From a virus (Duplodnaviria; Heunggongvirae; Uroviricota; Caudoviricetes), in the IMG/VR virus record IMGVR_UViG_2541047916_000008: a stretch of DNA of 45,879 nt; one strand, 5' to 3'. Below are positions 8,905-15,810 of the stretch, piece after piece. The position numbers and the translations under genes are program-made. Numbering within the stretch: the stretch's first letter is position 1; each line of letters begins with the position of its first letter. The notes beneath the pieces are model-generated. The model was not told the origin of the DNA and searched no databases. It saw only the letters and a list, made by a program, of their open reading frames with translations.

Positions 8905-9393
8905 ATGAGTCTTTTGAATGAAGTTCAGAAATTCATTGAAGCCCATCCGGGGTGTACTTCCGGAGACATTGCGGATGCTTTTGCAGGTTACTCACGGCAG
9001 CGCGTTCTGCAGTCAGCAAGCAAGTTACGTCAGAGTGGGCGTGTGGCTCACCGTTGTGAAGGAGATACACGCAGACATTTCCCGCGCCTGACTGAGAGAG
9101 CGCAGGAGCCGGAACCACAACCAGTTCGTGAAACCAGACCTGTGCGCAATTTCTATGTCGGCACTAACGATCCCCGGGTGATTTTGTGCCTGACCCGCCA
9201 GGCTGAAGAACTGGAGTCAAGGGGCTTATACCGTCGTGCTGCAACCGTGTGGATGGCGGCATTCCGTGAAAGCCACTCCCAGCCAGAACGAAACAATTTT
9301 CTGACGCGTCGTGAGCGGTGCTTACGGAAAAGCAGCAAGCGCGCTGCATCGGGTGAAGAGTGGTATCTGTCAGGGAATTACGTGGGGGCTTAA
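8905..9393 (+). CDS. Putative transcriptional regulator (C-terminal half resembles PerC-family activators), tentative
   Basis: Track ORF 8899..9393; segment LTRQAEELESRGLYRRAATVWMAAF resembles PerC-type proteins from memory. Confidence 0.3.
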   Translation: MSLLNEVQKFIEAHPGCTSGDIADAFAGYSRQRVLQSASKLRQSGRVAHRCEGDTRRHFPRLTERAQEPEPQPVRETRPVRNFYVGTNDPRVILCLTRQAEELESRGLYRRAATVWMAAFRESHSQPERNNFLTRRERCLRKSSKRAASGEEWYLSGNYVGA

Positions 9394-10046
9394 TGAGTAA
9401 TAAATATTGCCAGGCGCTGGTGGAACTGCGGAACAAACCAGCCCATGAACTGAAGGAAGTGGGCGATCAGTGGCGCACGCCGGACAACATTTTCTGGGGA
9501 ATTAACACCCTGTTTGGCCCGTTTGTTCTGGATCTGTTCACTGACGGTGATAACGCCAAATGTGCTGCGTATTACACGGCGGAAGACAACGCGCTGGCGC
9601 ATGACTGGTCAGAACGTCTTGCGGAGCTTAAAGGGGCTGCCTTTGGTAATCCCCCATACAGCCGCGCCAGTCAGCATGAGGGGCAATACATCACCGGCAT
9701 GCGTTACATCATGAAACATGCCAGTGCCATGCGTGATAAGGGTGGGCGCTATGTTTTCCTGATCAAAGCTGCCACCAGCGAAGTGTGGTGGCCGGAAGAT
9801 GCAGACCATATTGCTTTTATTCGCGGGCGTATTGGTTTTGAACTGCCTGCCTGGTTTATCCCGAAGGATGAGAAGCAGGTGCCGACAGGCGCTTTCTTCG
9901 CTGGTGCTATTGCTGTTTTCGACAAGACCTGGAAGGGACCGGCAATCAGCTACATCGGGCGCGATGAACTTGAGGCATGTGGTGAGGCGTTTTTGGCGCA
10001 GGTTCGCCAGCAGGCAGAAAAACTTGTCAGGGAGATGGCGGCATGA
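9393..10046 (+). CDS. Phage Dam-like N6-adenine DNA methyltransferase
   Basis: Track ORF 9360..10046 trimmed to ATG overlapping upstream stop; NPPY catalytic motif (FGNPPYS). Confidence 0.65.
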   Translation: MSNKYCQALVELRNKPAHELKEVGDQWRTPDNIFWGINTLFGPFVLDLFTDGDNAKCAAYYTAEDNALAHDWSERLAELKGAAFGNPPYSRASQHEGQYITGMRYIMKHASAMRDKGGRYVFLIKAATSEVWWPEDADHIAFIRGRIGFELPAWFIPKDEKQVPTGAFFAGAIAVFDKTWKGPAISYIGRDELEACGEAFLAQVRQQAEKLVREMAA

Positions 10047-11585: not shown

Positions 11586-12581
11586 GTGACCGTGAGAGCA
11601 CTACTGACCCCTGAAATTGCCCCGCGTATGGGGATCGTATTGTTCAGGCCAGGTTCAGAGCTGATGCCCCTGTTTATGCAGGGGCGTGTCCTGCTGGAGC
11701 CTGAGCCGGAACGTTATTCATCTTTCGCCAGTGGTGTCGTTCCGGCGGCATCACAACCGCTGGCGGATGATCCTGCCGTTCGGGCCGTGTTCCGCAATGA
11801 GGAAGTGATCCGTCGTGCTGGTGGCGTGGAATGTCTTGAAAGCTGGTTACTTCGTGAAAAAGGCTGCCAGTGGCCTCATTCCGACTGGCACAGCGAGAAC
11901 ATGACAACAATGCGACACGCGCCGGGCGCAATCCGTCTGTGCTGGCACTGCGATAACCAGCTGCGCGATCAGTTCACGGAACGGCTGGAATCAATGGCAA
12001 CGGATAACTGTGCCCGCTGGGTGTTGTCTGTTGTGCGTCGGGATCTCGGTTTTGATGATAGTCACGTTGTGACAATGCCGGAACTGTGCTGGTGGCTGAT
12101 TCGTAATGACCTGGCGGATGCCTTACCGGAAAGTGCAGCCCGTAAGGCACTGAGATTACCGAAGCCTGTTGTGCCGTCTGTCACCCGGGAAAGTGACCTT
12201 GTGCCTTCGGTTCCTGCCACCAGCATCATCCAGGATAAGGCGAAAAAGGTGCTGGCGCTGAAAGTGGATCCGGAGTCGCCGGAGTCTTTTATGTTACGCC
12301 CAAAACGTCGCCGCTGGGTTAATGAAAAGTACACACGCTGGGTTAAGACACAGCCGTGTGCATGTTGTGGAAAGCCTGCTGATGATCCCCACCACCTGAT
12401 AGGCCACGGTCAGGGGGGAATGGGTACAAAAGCGCATGACCTCTTTGTGTTGCCTTTGTGCAGAAAGCATCACGACGAGCTGCATGCGGATACCGTGGCA
12501 TTTGAAGAGAAGTATGGCTCCCAGCTGGAGCTGATATTTCGTTTTATCGATCGTGCGCTGGCAATTGGCGTGCTGGCCTGA
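11586..12581 (+). CDS. DUF968-family phage protein with C-terminal Cys/His (HNH-like) motif
   Basis: Track ORF (GTG start; alternative GTG at 11592); C-terminal CACCGK...HHLIGHGQ...CRKHHDELH. Confidence 0.45.
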
Positions 12582-12598
12582 TTTTGTGGAGAACGTTG

Positions 12599-12964
12599 AT
12601 GCGTGATATTCAAATGGTTCTTGAACGTTGGGGGGCATGGGTGGCAAATAATCACGAGGATGTCACCTGGTCGTCTATTGCTGCAGGATTTAAAGGACTA
12701 ATCCCTTCAAAAGTAAAATCCCGCCCGCAATGTTGTGACGATGATGCGATGATCATTTGTGGGTGCATGGCTCGCCTGAAAAAGAACAACAGCGATTTGC
12801 ACGATTTATTAGTGGATTATTATGTAGGTGGTATGACGTTTATGGCGCTTGCCCGTAAACATGGGCGTTCTGATTGCTGGGTTGGGCGTTTATTGCAAAA
12901 GGCTGAAGGTGTAGTTGATGGCATGTTAATGATGTTAGAAATTGAGCTAGAGATGGATCGTTAG
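12599..12964 (+). CDS. Late-gene antiterminator Q (QuuD-like)
   Basis: Track ORF 12584..12964 trimmed to ATG ([14 protein letters not shown]); near-identical in recollection to DLP12 QuuD-type antiterminators. Confidence 0.75.
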
Positions 12965-13004
12965 AAGACCTCTTATTGAGGGGGTAATTGAATCAGTTTA
13001 ATGT

Positions 13005-13037
13005 GTGGGGAGTCGATTTATTCTCCCCATTTTATTT
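13005..13037 (+). terminator. Hairpin plus T-rich tract downstream of Q
   Basis: ggggag-N10-ctcccc followed by attttattt. Confidence 0.35.
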
Positions 13038-13048
13038 AATTAATTTAC

Positions 13049-13495
13049 TTAAGGTTTTAATTCATCAAGACGTTGTTGGATAGTGTTTTTGCTTGCGTTG
13101 TCTGTTATAGCCATTTGTTGTACTTGCCCCATTGCCATTTGAGTTTCCATCCACATATCGGCCCACACTTTTGTATCGTTATTAACTTGAGCGATAGTAA
13201 ATCTGACTTTTGATACCGGGGTTGTTGAATAGGCATTGCCGATTAACATTTGTCCAAAAACAGCAGACCCGCCTTCCAGTTCTTTACCACATATAACACT
13301 GCTGTTATCAGCGTTGTAAATTATCAACCCTCTACTATTGCAGTAATTCACAAGGGCATCTTTGACTTTATCTTTTGTCGTATTTTGATAAACCCCCTCA
13401 GGTTTTCCTGATTGAGTTTTTTTTATCAATGGTACGGAAGAAGTACAACCTGAAATGATAGTTGCGCTAAGTAATAGTACAGTCATTTTATTCAT
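13049..13495 (-). CDS. Lipoprotein of unknown function (moron, AT-rich, opposite strand to late operon)
   Basis: Track ORF; signal peptide with lipobox LLSATIISGC; locally AT-rich; sits between terminator-like hairpins. Confidence 0.5.
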   Translation of the reverse strand: MNKMTVLLLSATIISGCTSSVPLIKKTQSGKPEGVYQNTTKDKVKDALVNYCNSRGLIIYNADNSSVICGKELEGGSAVFGQMLIGNAYSTTPVSKVRFTIAQVNNDTKVWADMWMETQMAMGQVQQMAITDNASKNTIQQRLDELKP

Positions 13496-13560
13496 GTTTC
13501 TTATCCATTGTTAAGGGCATACCTACACAATTATTTTTATTGGAGATGAATAATCAACCG

Positions 13561-13588
13561 TTTACAATCGTAAAAAATCAAATATGCT
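13561..13588 (+). promoter_or_regulatory. Candidate late promoter PR' (TTTACA-N16-TATGCT)
   Basis: Sigma70-like -35/-10 with 16-bp spacer, about 30 bp upstream of a short hairpin/T7 terminator, resembling the PR'-tR' arrangement on which Q acts. Confidence 0.3.
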
Positions 13589-13620
13589 GTTAAGAGTGGT
13601 TACTTCGCCACACAACTTAA

Positions 13621-13646
13621 ACCCGCCGCTGAGCGGTTTTTTTGTA
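13621..13646 (+). terminator. Candidate tR' terminator
   Basis: cccgccgc-tgag-gcgg short GC hairpin followed by T7. Confidence 0.45.
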
Positions 13647-13741
13647 CCTGTAAACTTGGTGCAGTACAGTAAACACGCTGGTGGTCGTGAATACTGACCT
13701 TTTATCTTGCTGGCTTTTTAGACAAGAGTTATTGGTATGTC

Positions 13742-13969
13742 ATGTTAACCAGAAGGGAAAAAGACATGCTAAAACAGCAAGATATGACAGAAACCGCCGC
13801 CGCAGTCCTTCATTTCTTACCTGCTGACAAGTGGGTAACGCCACGCATGATGACGAGAACTACCGGAGTAAGCGAAGCCCGGTGCCAGTTAATACTGACT
13901 CAGTTAGTTCTGGCGGGTCTGGCGAAGGATAACGGCGGGTACGGGAATAAATTCAGACGCTGCCAGTAA
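13742..13969 (+). CDS. Small hypothetical protein (75 aa), possibly DNA-binding
   Basis: Track ORF upstream of the late-region methyltransferase; no family recognised. Confidence 0.35.
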   Translation: MLTRREKDMLKQQDMTETAAAVLHFLPADKWVTPRMMTRTTGVSEARCQLILTQLVLAGLAKDNGGYGNKFRRCQ

Positions 13970-14119
13970 TGGCGGTTTCCTGCTGTGAAAATGGGCGGCT
14001 GGTGGGTGTTGGTAGCACCTGCCAGCCATTCGCTCATGCCTACTGGTCACAAGCGAACCACGGCCCACTGCTTTAGCGCAAAAGCAGAGTGAGCCTACCA
14101 GAGTTACGCTTACTGATCC

Positions 14120-15172
14120 ATGAAAAATACTGTAAAAATAAACAGTGTTGATTTAATCAACGCTGATTGCCTGCATTTTATTCAGTCCCTGCCTGATGAT
14201 TCCATTGACCTGATTGTTACCGATCCGCCTTACTTCAAGGTGAAACCCAACGGCTGGGACAATCAGTGGAAAGGGGACGAAGATTACCTTAAGTGGCTGG
14301 ACCACTGTCTGGCCCAGTTCTGGCGGGTGTTGAAACCTGCCGGAAGCCTTTACCTGTTCTGTGGGCATCGCCTGGCATCTGATATTGAGATCATGATGCG
14401 TGAACGTTTCAACGTGCTTAACCATATCATCTGGGCGAAGCCGTCCGGACGTTGGAATGGGTGTAATAAAGAAAGTCTGCGCGCATATTTTCCTGCCACA
14501 GAGCGCGTTCTGTTTGCTGAACATTACCAGGGGCCATATCGCGGCAAAAGTGACGGCTATGCGGCAAAAGAAAGGGAACTCAAACAGCACATAATGGCAC
14601 CGCTGATATCGTATTTCAGGGATGCTCGTGCCGAACTGGGTATAACGGCAAAACAGATTGCCGAAGCCACTGGTAAGAAAAATATGGTTTCCCACTGGTT
14701 TGGTGCCAGTCAGTGGCAGTTGCCGAATGAGGCTGACTACCGGAAGTTGCAGGCACTGTTTTCCCGTATAGCGGCAGAGAAGTTTCAGGAAAAACAACTG
14801 GAACAACCACACCACCAGCTGGTGGCATCTTATGATTCACTGAATCGCAAATATTATGAATTGCTGGATGAGTTTAAAACTCTCCGGCGCTATTTCTCCG
14901 TATCAGTTTCCGTGCCTTATACCGACGTCTGGATGCATAAACCCGTTCAGTTCTACCCGGGGAAACATCCGTGTGAGAAACCGGCGGATATGCTCAGGCA
15001 AATAATCAATGCCAGTAGTCGACCAGGTGATCTGGTTGCTGATTTTTTTATGGGCTCCGGTTCCACAATAAAAGCAGCAATGGCGCTGGGGCGTCGGGCC
15101 TTAGGTGTTGAGCTTGAGTCAGAGCGGTTTAACCAGACAGTGAAAGAGATAAACGAGCTGGTGGGGAAATAA
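14120..15172 (+). CDS. DNA methyltransferase, beta-class N6A/N4C type (DPPY motif IV N-terminal, FxGSG motif I C-terminal); no adjacent restriction gene
   Basis: Track ORF; [10 protein letters not shown] near N-terminus and DFFMGSGST near C-terminus. Confidence 0.7.
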
Positions 15173-15239
15173 TCTGGTGGCCACGTCAGGTGGCCTTTTT
15201 ATTTCCATTACACAGCACCCGCATCTGCGAGGTGGGGTT

Positions 15240-15455
15240 ATGAAATCCATGGATAAGTTAACAACGGGTGTCGCCTATGGCACCTCAGCAGGTAGTGCCG
15301 GGTACTGGTTTTTACAGTTGCTCGATAAAGTCACGCCCTCACAGTGGGCGGCAATAGGTGTGCTGGGTAGTCTGGTATTTGGCTTGCTGACGTATCTGAC
15401 AAACCTTTATTTCAAGATTAAAGAAGACAAGCGTAAGGCTGCACGGGGAGAGTAA
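15240..15455 (+). CDS. Phage-21-type class II holin (pinholin S21-like) with dual-start motif MKSM
   Basis: Track ORF 15177..15455 trimmed to Met at 15240 (GAGGTGGGG RBS); 71 aa; close match in recollection to S21 ([14 protein letters not shown]...[12 protein letters not shown]...[19 protein letters not shown]). Confidence 0.7.
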
Positions 15456-15459
15456 TTCA

Positions 15460-15810
15460 ATGACTCAAAACTATGAACTGATTGTGAAAGGGATCCGCAA
15501 TTTTGAGAATAAAGTTACGGTAACTGTAGCGTTACGGGACAAAAAACGCTTTGACGGTGAAATTTTTGACCTGGACATCTCGCTGGACCGTGTTGAAGGT
15601 GCCGCGCTGGAGTTTTATGAGGCAGCAGCCAGAAGGAGCATCAGACAGGTCTTCCTGGATGTTGCTGCCGGGTTATGTGAAGGGGATGAGCAGTCGCCGG
15701 AAAAGCGCCCCGTAATTTTAGATGCGCAGAATGTGTGGATAACCTACAAAGGAAAGCTACCAGGAAGAATTACTGGTTCTCTGAAGACTCCTCCGGAATC
15801 ACAACCTTAA
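15460..15810 (+). CDS. Hypothetical soluble acidic protein (116 aa) inserted between holin and endolysin
   Basis: Track ORF; RBS GAGAG; 4 bp after holin stop and 63 bp before endolysin start; no TM segment; no family recognised. Confidence 0.45.
   Translation: MTQNYELIVKGIRNFENKVTVTVALRDKKRFDGEIFDLDISLDRVEGAALEFYEAAARRSIRQVFLDVAAGLCEGDEQSPEKRPVILDAQNVWITYKGKLPGRITGSLKTPPESQP

Follow-up and report, generated by a model that had tools for sequence, protein, structure and literature searches.

Organization of the methylase locus

We analyzed a phage genome of the Caudoviricetes (IMG/VR record IMGVR_UViG_2541047916_000008), the whole 45,879-nt stretch of which is referred to here as the window. 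Between a candidate late promoter-terminator pair, pR'/tR', and the holin gene, the window carries a gene for a 350-aa DNA methyltransferase (hereafter, the methylase), preceded by a structured RNA leader and by a small gene for a predicted winged-helix protein. The window is 100% identical to Escherichia phage PhiR40_1 across this stretch. The features of the locus are as follows:

12599–12964, + strand: antiterminator Q, which controls late transcription (PF06530, E = 2.1e-51; antitermination protein Q in PhiR40_1; alternative start at 12584)
13049–13495, − strand: lipoprotein-like ORF, between Q and the small ORF
13561–13588, + strand: candidate late promoter pR' (TTTACA-16 nt-TATGCT), inferred from a promoter-like match and a comparative boundary
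13589–13645, + strand: initial transcribed region with a tR'-like intrinsic terminator (hairpin at about 13620–13637, then seven T residues), conserved
13766–13969, + strand: gene for a predicted small winged-helix protein, 67 aa (75 aa if read from 13742), assigned by phrog_331 and AlphaFold2
13959–13987, + strand: hairpin over the stop codon of the small ORF, then a U-rich tract, read off the sequence
13982–14122, + strand: structured RNA leader of the methylase, about 140 nt, delineated by fold energy, covariation and covariance-model searches
14120–15172, + strand: M.EcoGII-family methylase gene, 350 aa, assigned by PF01555, motifs and identity to M.EcoGII, Anc291 and SUPREM
15179–15205, + strand: hairpin resembling an intrinsic terminator (GGCCACGTCAGGTGGCC, then a T-run), in the gap from methylase stop to holin start
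15240–15455, + strand: holin S (PF04971, E = 3.6e-35; holin in PhiR40_1)

The promoter and terminator calls combine consensus matches with comparative boundaries and denote candidates. In alignment A5, the sequence upstream of position 13589 differs among phages whose Q genes differ, and conservation sets in right after the -10 element of pR'. The terminator-like site that follows (13625–13637 plus TTTTTTT) lies in a region kept in phages 1720a-02, WGPS2 and phiP27. The hairpin over the small-ORF stop codon is weaker in the window than its equivalent in phiP27, L014, L019 and others, where hairpin and T-run have the clear look of a terminator. Because tR' and at least one further terminator-like hairpin precede the methylase gene, it would be transcribed by Q-modified RNA polymerase only, and its assignment in the sequence-only reading to the late region, between the candidate pR'/tR' and the holin, was borne out. 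A promoter of the methylase's own, an extended -10 element at 13984–13992 (TGTGAAAAT) that has the needed A and T in the window, was set aside because it is not conserved, many relatives reading TGTGGAAAT or missing one A.

Holin S is the first gene of the lysis cassette and the downstream boundary of the inserted methylase cassette. Among the neighbors of the methylase (Q, the lipoprotein-like ORF, the winged-helix ORF, the holin, DUF1327 and lysozyme), Pfam and PHROGs revealed no recognizable restriction nuclease, and PADLOC, run on the window, returned generic methyltransferase models only, with no other defense-system match. With no adjoining gene for a cognate endonuclease, a classical type II restriction-modification (R-M) system was rejected, and the methylase is, as originally claimed, an orphan with no linked restriction gene recognized nearby.

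The methylase belongs to the M.EcoGII family

The sole Pfam match of the methylase, to PF01555 (N6_N4_Mtase), spans residues 29–341 (E = 1.9e-42). The DPPY motif occupies residues 35–38 and FMGSG residues 310–314, in beta-class order; both motifs are intact rather than degenerate, in full agreement with the initial description of a 350-aa beta-class enzyme with an N-terminal DPPY and a C-terminal FxGSG. The methylase aligned with M.EcoGII over its full length at 80.5% identity (349 columns, 2 gaps), the target-recognition region (residues ~160–237) being free of gaps, and showed 88.5% identity to the resurrected ancestor Anc291 and 70.7% to SUPREM in pairwise alignments. Across the set of M.EcoGII, Anc291, Anc289 and Anc284, the pairwise identities were 88.5%, 86.5%, 80.5% and 70.7%; all these values are lower bounds because the references were extracted by machine from a PDF supplement, leaving small errors in the alignment. 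By these identities, the methylase is placed inside the clade bounded by the experimentally non-specific M.EcoGII, Anc291, Anc289 and Anc284. We thus predict an M.EcoGII-family beta-class N6-adenine DNA methyltransferase that is not site-specific, and its target specificity is probably known already in effect, through kinship to M.EcoGII and Anc291, a point missed in the sequence-only reading. The AlphaFold2 model of the methylase had a mean pLDDT of 66, with several segments below 50, and places a helical insert (residues 146–255) between the two halves of the core.

The prototype of the M.EcoGII family is sold as a commercial reagent. M.EcoGII and M.EcoGI come from E. coli O104:H4 strain C227-11, and M.EcoGII is a non-specific adenine methyltransferase (Murray et al. 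2018, PMC5778455). M.EcoGII (Murray et al. 2018, PMC5778455), Anc291 and the deeper ancestors were found experimentally to lack site specificity, methylating both DNA and RNA without a motif, and enzymes of the family modify almost every adenine. On DNA, M.EcoGII shows full activity by itself and is reported to need no other proteins. Homologues of M.EcoGI and M.EcoGII produced no detectable methylation in lysogens, and their overexpression slows growth (PMC5778455).

The window enzyme shares with M.EcoGII the beta-class architecture, a length of 349–350 aa, the N-terminal DPPY and C-terminal FxGxG, a central target-recognition region, predicted to be helical, and the status of a prophage-borne orphan. 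It is, however, a distinct allele, nearer to the reconstructed Anc291. Phage 1720a-02 carries a very close relative within this same cassette, together with winged-helix ORF and leader; in the M.EcoGII-family literature, we found no description of either element. Promiscuous adenine methylases that are likewise phage-associated, with relaxed or absent sequence specificity, are attributed to Drozdz et al. (2012), but these belong to the alpha class, with the motif order reversed, and thus represent an independent architecture.

A small winged-helix gene precedes the methylase

A 75-aa ORF had been noted upstream of the methylase, and an ORF at 13742–13969 indeed exists, but its start required revision. 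Close relatives have ACG in place of the ATG at 13742, whereas the ATG at 13766 is conserved, preceded by AAGGGA and annotated as the start in PhiR40_1, so that the product is most likely 67 aa long. It matches phrog_331 (E = 3e-26), and its AlphaFold2 model (pLDDT 86.6) has the H1-S-H2-H3-S-S topology of a winged helix; accordingly named here, it is a predicted winged-helix protein. A Foldseek search with the model returned generic winged-helix matches only, with no specific structural relative and no DpnI, and there was no significant PDB sequence match. On these grounds, a DpnI-like reader of m6A was rejected. A controller (C) protein of an R-M system was rejected as well, given that the predicted winged helix is not of the Xre type and that an R gene is absent; the locus also showed no conspicuous C-box-like palindrome. 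Helix 3 (RCQLILTQL) does not vary, a hint that its target is conserved.

A homologue of the small ORF lies directly upstream of the methylase, in the same orientation, at 60 of 85 loci and at 96 of 113 metagenome loci (about 75–85%). In the other 15–25% or so, the small ORF is missing, and leader and methylase are kept.

A conserved structured RNA leads into the methylase gene

The leader (+ strand) comprises five helices:

P1, 13992–13996 with 14063–14067, + strand: encloses P2 and P3 in a three-way junction
P2, 13997–14027, + strand: inside P1
P3, 14029–14057, + strand: inside P1
P4, 14068–14087, + strand: 3' of the P1 closure
P5, 14088–14094 with 14108–14114, + strand: 3' arm stops 5 nt short of the AUG

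The nucleotides of the P1-P2-P3 junction are near-invariant, and P5 pairs the region just 5' of the methylase AUG, where no Shine-Dalgarno sequence is visible. The minimum-free-energy fold has −57.8 kcal/mol (z = −3.42). Compensatory changes were present at 19 of 43 pairs, against 9.9 ± 1.9 in shuffled alignments, and 81% of the alignment cells were paired, against at most 50% in slid controls; when the alignment was fitted to the model, 30 of 42 pairs were compensatory. The covariance model found a single match per locus, every one of them 5' of a methylase. Conversely, searching from the leader, a methylase followed all 103 genuine leader matches (103/103) in a metagenome scan, which served for this reverse test; a scan of IMG/VR by leader pattern had yielded 1 locus.

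Searches of Rfam 15 assigned the leader to no family: nothing reached E ≤ 1 in 12900–15500, and a chance microRNA match in 13940–14140 had E = 9.1. ARAGORN detected no tRNA in the window, which led us to reject an intact or remnant tRNA in the interval from small ORF to methylase. No searchable paper contained sequence strings taken verbatim from the leader or the pR'-tR' transcript. Both the leader and the small winged-helix gene look undescribed.

An alternative helix, GGCCCA/UGAGCC, that would compete with P1 and P5 is formable, with 78% of cells paired; it is almost invariant, and one pair only is compensatory. A pseudoknot between the P3 loop and CCUACCAG was rejected on inspection of alignment A3 by eye, where the loop varies and the partner is constant.

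Distribution of the cassette

In its common order, the cassette consists of the small winged-helix gene, a hairpin or terminator, the leader of about 140 nt, the methylase and a terminator. Leader and methylase gene were identified in 1276 of 5426 complete E. coli genomes (~24%), with up to 8 copies per genome, and the cassette is absent from many Stx phages. The order Q, winged-helix gene, methylase, then lysis genes or tRNA/stx, recurs in 1720a-02, WGPS2, phiP27, PY54, Hafnia phage yong2 and Citrobacter phiNP, and the genes upstream of the cassette are entirely different in other phages. The closest copies, 96–100% identical in DNA over small ORF, leader and methylase, are those of SfV (orf47/orf48), Stx2c-converting phages, mEp460, the cdtI phage and PhiR40_1; in the literature, we found annotations only ("unknown," "DNA methylase") and no functional work.

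The cassette resembles the morons that lie downstream of Q and pR' in lambdoid phages, such as stx and tRNA genes, in its insertion site between pR'/tR' and the lysis cassette, its predicted dependence on Q read-through and its flanking candidate terminators. It differs in that its methylase cargo would modify the phage's own DNA and is not a host-directed toxin.

A proposed role in late hypermethylation of phage DNA

Taken as a whole, the following account appears probable: an M.EcoGII-family methylase in a late, Q-dependent cassette hypermethylates phage DNA before packaging and is silent in the lysogen. The cassette, an insertion that separates pR'/tR' from the lysis genes in lambdoid phages, would have its methylase transcribed only late in lytic growth, under Q antitermination. 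The enzyme would then modify adenines in essentially any sequence context, hypermethylating replicated phage DNA ahead of packaging, and progeny genomes could withstand the numerous restriction enzymes of types I, II and III that fail to cut sites carrying m6A. Since blanket methylation harms the host, the gene would be kept silent in the lysogen. Family membership, cassette anatomy, conservation and RNA covariation come from the present analysis, and non-specific activity, silence in lysogens and toxicity were reported for close relatives. We infer the late timing, the protection from restriction and a regulatory function of leader and winged-helix protein.

Anti-restriction self-protection, one of two roles envisaged in the sequence-only reading, matches the shielding of phage DNA proposed for the M.EcoGII family (Murray et al. 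2018, PMC5778455). Our literature search found no paper demonstrating methylation of virion DNA by a family member, or better plating on restricting hosts thanks to one. The benefit of hypermethylation depends on context because m6A-dependent type IV nucleases cut hypermethylated DNA better.

The methylase itself adds little that is new, being another copy of a known family for which blanket protection has already been suggested, except that roughly one in four complete E. coli genomes probably carries a wrong RefSeq label for it, "site-specific DNA-methyltransferase." What stands out is that the methylase is never alone: it is always accompanied by the covarying, conserved leader and usually by the small winged-helix gene, both absent from Rfam and from the literature searched. 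We tentatively raise the possibility that the leader represents a cis-regulatory RNA of a new class, which controls the output of a toxic, non-specific DNA/RNA methylase by limiting its translation to defined conditions of late infection. Its ligand could be a small molecule, SAM or SAH, or the leader could instead bind a protein, either the methylase itself, in a feedback loop, or the winged-helix protein encoded upstream. Should the leader control expression, it would explain how prophages keep a dangerous enzyme silent and would offer a natural off-switch to engineers using M.EcoGII.

Alternative functions of the methylase

It is unlikely that the methylase acts mainly on RNA, or that the 67-aa winged-helix partner steers it, in a complex, to rRNA, mRNA or the leader. 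M.EcoGII and relatives do methylate RNA in vitro, the small ORF with its invariant helix 3 is co-oriented with the methylase at most loci, and there is a precedent in M.EcoPA8orf6770P–PNB-2, a two-subunit Stx-phage methyltransferase (Gong, Chakraborty and Koudelka 2023, PMC10810198) that forms a 1:1 complex preferring 16S rRNA. There, too, the gene of a phage methylase shares its transcript with that of a small winged-HTH protein encoded upstream, and a terminator precedes the pair (PMC10810198). However, M.EcoPA8orf6770P is an M.EcoGV-like member of the MT-A70 family, whereas the window methylase is a PF01555 beta-class enzyme, and the M.EcoPA8orf6770P–PNB-2 genes lie at the other end of the prophage and are reported to be transcribed in lysogens nearing stationary phase (PMC10810198). 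With no MT-A70 match and a different locus, the window pair was rejected as a direct PNB-2-type homologue or rRNA methyltransferase. Furthermore, the self-sufficiency of M.EcoGII on DNA, the loci that retain leader and methylase without the small ORF, and the generic nature of the winged-helix fold all argue against a partner-directed enzyme.

Late hypermethylation might instead serve phage DNA metabolism, as a packaging mark, by blocking MutH-, SeqA- or Dam-dependent processes of the host, or by shutting down host transcription before lysis. The position of this late-operon methylase directly upstream of the lysis genes, the harm that blanket methylation does to cells and the fact that the same phage already has an early Dam-type enzyme of its own are compatible with such a function. 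Nevertheless, we consider it improbable: the literature searched offered no support for it, and many lambdoid phages lack the cassette, which fits an accessory gene better than a core function.

Epigenetic gene control in the lysogen by a site-specific orphan methylase, in the manner of Dam or CcrM, had been the second suggestion of the sequence-only reading. The gene is an orphan, widespread and well conserved, and CcrM is a distant beta-class relative. This role is, however, very unlikely for an enzyme 80–88% identical to ones shown to lack site specificity, the more so because M.PflMI, the nearest site-specific relative named in the literature, falls outside the M.EcoGII clade, homologues are silent in lysogens and harmful when expressed, and the gene resides in the late operon, behind terminators.

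Finally, that the methylase is half of an R-M system whose nuclease escaped recognition, such as the DUF968/HNH-like ORF at 11586–12581 (a weak HNHc_6 match of 26.9 bits against a cut-off of 26.6, labeled "HNH endonuclease" in PHROGs), is extremely improbable, given that this ORF, located upstream of Q at a distance of 1.5 kb, belongs to another transcription unit and has no PADLOC defense-system match, that the cassette has entirely different upstream genes in other phages, and that a non-specific methylase could not mark self versus non-self for a cognate nuclease.

A separate early Dam-type methylase

The early region of the window encodes a second methylase:

9393–10046, + strand: Dam-type N6-adenine methyltransferase (PF05869, TIGR01712, NPPY at residue 86)

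The original identification of a Dam-like NPPY enzyme here was confirmed by the matches to PF05869 (Dam; E = 9.7e-46; 156 bits, cut-off 28.1) and TIGR01712 (255.6 bits, cut-off 97), and its product is 99% identical to the "dam" product of SfV. It is a separate methylase, probably specific for GATC. Given that SfV and Stx2c phages carry this early enzyme as well, at 99–100% identity, the two-methylase layout was already present in sequenced phages; it also occurs in PY54, 1720a-02 and Hafnia phage yong2 and is not unusual.

A late-region methylase of the M.EcoGII family

The window carries a lambdoid prophage. Its segment 12900-15500 matches Escherichia phages PhiR40_1 and PhiR55_1 at 100% identity, as it does several E. 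coli chromosomes. A sequence-only reading of this DNA had named an orphan methylase and a small upstream ORF in the late region, and both are present, with one correction concerning the start of the small ORF. The promoter and terminator assignments listed here derive from consensus matches and comparative boundaries.

Table. Features of the methylase region and the early methylase
9393-10046: phage Dam-type methylase, early region (PF05869, TIGR01712)
Upstream of the methylase, first in the local order: Q antiterminator (PF06530)
13007-13026: hairpin and T-run 3' of Q, possibly a bidirectional terminator
13049-13495, minus: 148-aa ORF with a lipoprotein-type signal sequence (..LLSATIISGC..); phrog_3152, function unknown
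13514-13485, minus: promoter-like site, good match, for the 148-aa lipoprotein-like gene
13561-13588: candidate pR', TTTACA-16-TATGCT (consensus and alignment boundary)
~13620-13645: candidate tR', hairpin and T7, at the end of a conserved block
13766-13969: small ORF, between the 148-aa minus-strand ORF and the methylase
13959-13976: hairpin over the small-ORF stop codon, then a U-rich tract
13982-14122, plus: structured RNA leader, ~140 nt
14120-15172, plus: methylase, 350 aa (PF01555)
15179-15195 and T-run: terminator-like site between methylase and holin
Downstream of the methylase: holin (PF04971)
15460-15810, plus: DUF1327/YdfR-family ORF between holin and lysozyme, function unknown
After the DUF1327/YdfR-family ORF: lysozyme

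The methylase matches the Pfam family N6_N4_Mtase (PF01555, E=1.9e-42, residues 29-341), with DPPY at residue 35 and FMGSG at residue 310, which is the beta-class motif order. Its PDB relatives are all distant (an unnamed beta-class methyltransferase, M.RsrI, M.MboIIA and CcrM). M.EcoGII, a 349-aa beta-class enzyme from an E. coli O104:H4 prophage, likewise has DPPY, a central recognition domain and FxGxG, and methylates adenine in any context (PMC5778455). The methylase is at least 80.5% identical to M.EcoGII and, among resurrected ancestors, at least 88.5% to Anc291, 86.5% to Anc289, 70.7% to Anc284 (SUPREM) and 62% to Anc250, all lower bounds because the references (Supplementary Table S1, PMC11551740) were machine-read from a PDF. 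M.PflMI, the nearest named site-specific enzyme, lies outside the range of M.EcoGII and the ancestors. Methylation by M.EcoGII, Anc291 and SUPREM lacks a sequence motif, and all resurrected ancestors methylate both DNA and RNA (ancestor sequences: PMC11551740). We assign the methylase to the M.EcoGII family with high confidence on sequence grounds, and it most probably forms m6A without site specificity; family membership thus already answers the question of target specificity, which the sequence-only reading would have approached through the recognition domain. The enzyme is of a known kind, and its exact sequence had been deposited and annotated before. In the sequences P0008, P0047 and P0117, a 98-99% identical methylase is fused to unrelated domains (e.g. 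PF03245, PF26078/PF26079, PF06316/PF13505), probably through gene-calling or assembly artefacts.

Proposed late transcription and role

Like family membership, the anatomy of the cassette (small ORF, terminator-like hairpin, leader, methylase, terminator-like site) is observed directly. When the region 5' of the small ORF is aligned across phages with different Q genes, the sequence is variable up to a -10-like hexamer. Directly after it begins a conserved block (GTTAAGAGTGGTTACTTCGCCACAC...), closing with a hairpin and T7; this pattern is the anatomy expected of a putative pR' with its Q-specific part, followed by tR'. The hairpin over the small-ORF stop codon is an obvious terminator in relatives such as phiP27. 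At Photorhabdus and Xenorhabdus loci (L046-L078), the interval from the winged-helix ORF to the methylase has a short GC-rich hairpin with a T-run in place of the long leader. What all loci seem to share is a terminator before the methylase. The cassette looks like a moron readable by Q-modified polymerase only, which fits the reported silence and toxicity of the M.EcoGII family: M.EcoGII goes unexpressed in the lysogen, its overexpression slows growth (PMC5778455), and methylome work on STEC lists M.EcoGI/GII homologues as 'nonspecific' and sees none of their methylation in lysogens (PMC6602927).

Anti-restriction self-protection, one of two functions proposed by the sequence-only reading, holds up as the best-supported account, in the form of late anti-restriction hypermethylation. 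The methylase would be silent in the lysogen and expressed late and Q-dependently; phage DNA would be hypermethylated before packaging, and progeny thereby protected against m6A-sensitive restriction. Activity, silence and toxicity are taken from experiments on relatives 80-88% identical; timing and biological role are inferred.

A covarying RNA leader precedes the methylase

In a synteny check, ~150 nt 5' of the methylase ATG proved to be kept even in loci without the small ORF. Positions 13983-14122 fold at -57.8 kcal/mol (z=-3.42), with helix P1 (UGGGC/GCCCA) closing a junction that bears the long hairpin P2 and P3, followed by P4 and by P5, whose 3' arm ends 5 nt before the methylase AUG. 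No Shine-Dalgarno sequence is visible before this AUG.

In a MAFFT alignment of 42 non-redundant leader sequences, made independently of the structure model, 19 of 43 leader pairs show compensatory changes compared to 9.9±1.9 in shuffles (0/500 reach 19), and 81% of cells are paired versus at most 50% with partners slid. One P3 pair occurs as CG (18), UA (9), AU (6) and UG (3), and a P1 pair switches from C-G to G-C in Gilliamella sequences. The model-fitted alignment, which leans towards the structure, has compensatory changes at 30/42 pairs. The many G-U pairs are consistent with the plus strand. A covariance model made from the 42-sequence alignment matched exactly once per locus in 51 loci and the window (E 1e-11 to 1e-38), always on the methylase strand and immediately 5' of the gene, with no other match in 760 kb. 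A metagenome scan by leader DNA pattern yielded 111 loci with enough downstream sequence, 103 of them with a methylase start within 200 nt; the other 8, lacking a covariance-model match, were rejected as chance matches. We consider the RNA structure very probably real. The leader has no match in Rfam 15, its sequence is printed in no searchable paper, and it was apparently undescribed before.

The most economical idea is that the leader gates translation of a toxic enzyme. A competing helix (GGCCCA/UGAGCC) may also form. Positions 14110-14122 (CTTACTGATCYATG) hardly vary among Enterobacteriaceae loci and include a GATC 1 nt ahead of the methylase ATG; pairing of UGAUC with the 16S rRNA 3' end could substitute for a Shine-Dalgarno sequence. 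Alternatively, the GATC could be a Dam target.

A predicted winged-helix companion

The small ORF had been given 75 aa. As ATG 13742 is unconserved (ACG in close relatives), while ATG 13766, with AAGGGA upstream, opens the conserved N-terminus MLKQQDMTE and is the annotated start in PhiR40_1, its product is most likely 67 aa long. The ORF belongs to phrog_331 (function unknown) and has only sub-threshold Pfam matches (MarR_2, TrmB and similar families); RefSeq names some homologues 'TrmB family' or 'DprA-like winged helix'. An AlphaFold2 model (20 homologues, pLDDT 86.6) has the canonical winged-helix order H1-S1-H2-H3-S2-S3. Foldseek returned only generic winged-helix matches (E ~6e-3), namely Z-alpha, IclR and TrmBL2 N-termini and O-methyltransferase N-terminal domains, with no DpnI-like reader among them. 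In the protein alignment, helix 3 (RCQLILTQL) is invariant and the protein is a mosaic around it: there are two allelic forms of residues 12-38 and two of the C-terminal wing, and they recombine freely.

A homologue lies directly 5' of the methylase in 60/85 loci collected via the methylase and in 96/113 collected via the leader; conversely, the methylase comes next in all 7 phage records with the small ORF that were checked. The small ORF is thus a frequent but dispensable companion. A suggestive precedent for a partner role comes from an MT-A70 Stx-phage enzyme, unrelated to the methylase, which the upstream winged-HTH partner PNB-2 redirects to 16S rRNA (PMC10810198). Partner-directed or RNA-directed methylation nevertheless appears unlikely here, given a dispensable partner and an enzyme active alone, M.EcoGII being active without the small-ORF protein (PMC5778455). 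With the apparently undescribed covarying leader and the conserved companion, the question of how a dangerous enzyme is controlled comes within reach of experiment.

Distribution of the cassette

By megablast, leader and methylase occur in 1276 of 5426 complete E. coli genomes, in up to 8 copies per genome. Protein relatives of 56-93% identity are found in Enterobacteriaceae, Erwiniaceae, Morganellaceae, Yersinia phage PY54 and Gilliamella. The order Q, small ORF, methylase, lysis genes (or tRNAs and stx) is shared by 1720a-02, Stx2a_WGPS2, phiP27, PY54, yong2 (Hafnia) and phiNP (Citrobacter), which differ in Q genes and holins. The accessory distribution argues against the idea that the methylase serves phage DNA metabolism or shuts off the host, which is about as improbable as partner-directed or RNA-directed methylation.

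E. coli E1620 (NZ_CM180509.1, 4415567-4415785) holds only the first 219 nt, leader and methylase start, at 99.5% identity, adjoining a terminase gene; this copy is apparently truncated or rearranged. In other phages, reverse-strand genes differ at the spot between Q and candidate pR' (e.g. comparison locus L003, 1345-2908). In phiP27, the gene that separates Q from the winged-helix ORF (L004, 1708-2937) encodes a 409-aa member of the GIY-YIG nuclease family; it has the same orientation as the cassette and adjoins it.

Rival functions and the early methylase

Epigenetic control, the second function proposed by the sequence-only reading, fares worse: a site-specific epigenetic regulator runs against both the family data and the gene position, and we regard it as very unlikely. 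The absence of an adjacent restriction endonuclease was borne out, as no neighbour is recognisable as a nuclease partner and PADLOC returned methyltransferase models only. Just 5' of Q lies a 331-aa DUF968/YdfU-family ORF (11586-12581, plus). Its HNHc_6 score barely passes the threshold (26.9 bits, cut-off 26.6), and it has the PHROGs label HNH endonuclease and no PADLOC match. A hidden R-M system formed with this HNH-like ORF is scarcely credible, since the ORF sits unlinked in a different operon and self cannot be marked by a methylase that lacks specificity.

The early Dam-like NPPY methylase of the sequence-only reading is corroborated by PF05869 (E=9.7e-46) and TIGR01712 (255.6 bits, cut-off 97) matches, with NPPY at residue 86, and its product shares 99% identity with that of SfV 'dam'. 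Since SfV and Stx2c phages carry the methylase cassette and the same early Dam-type gene together, two orphan methylases per lambdoid phage are a known layout.
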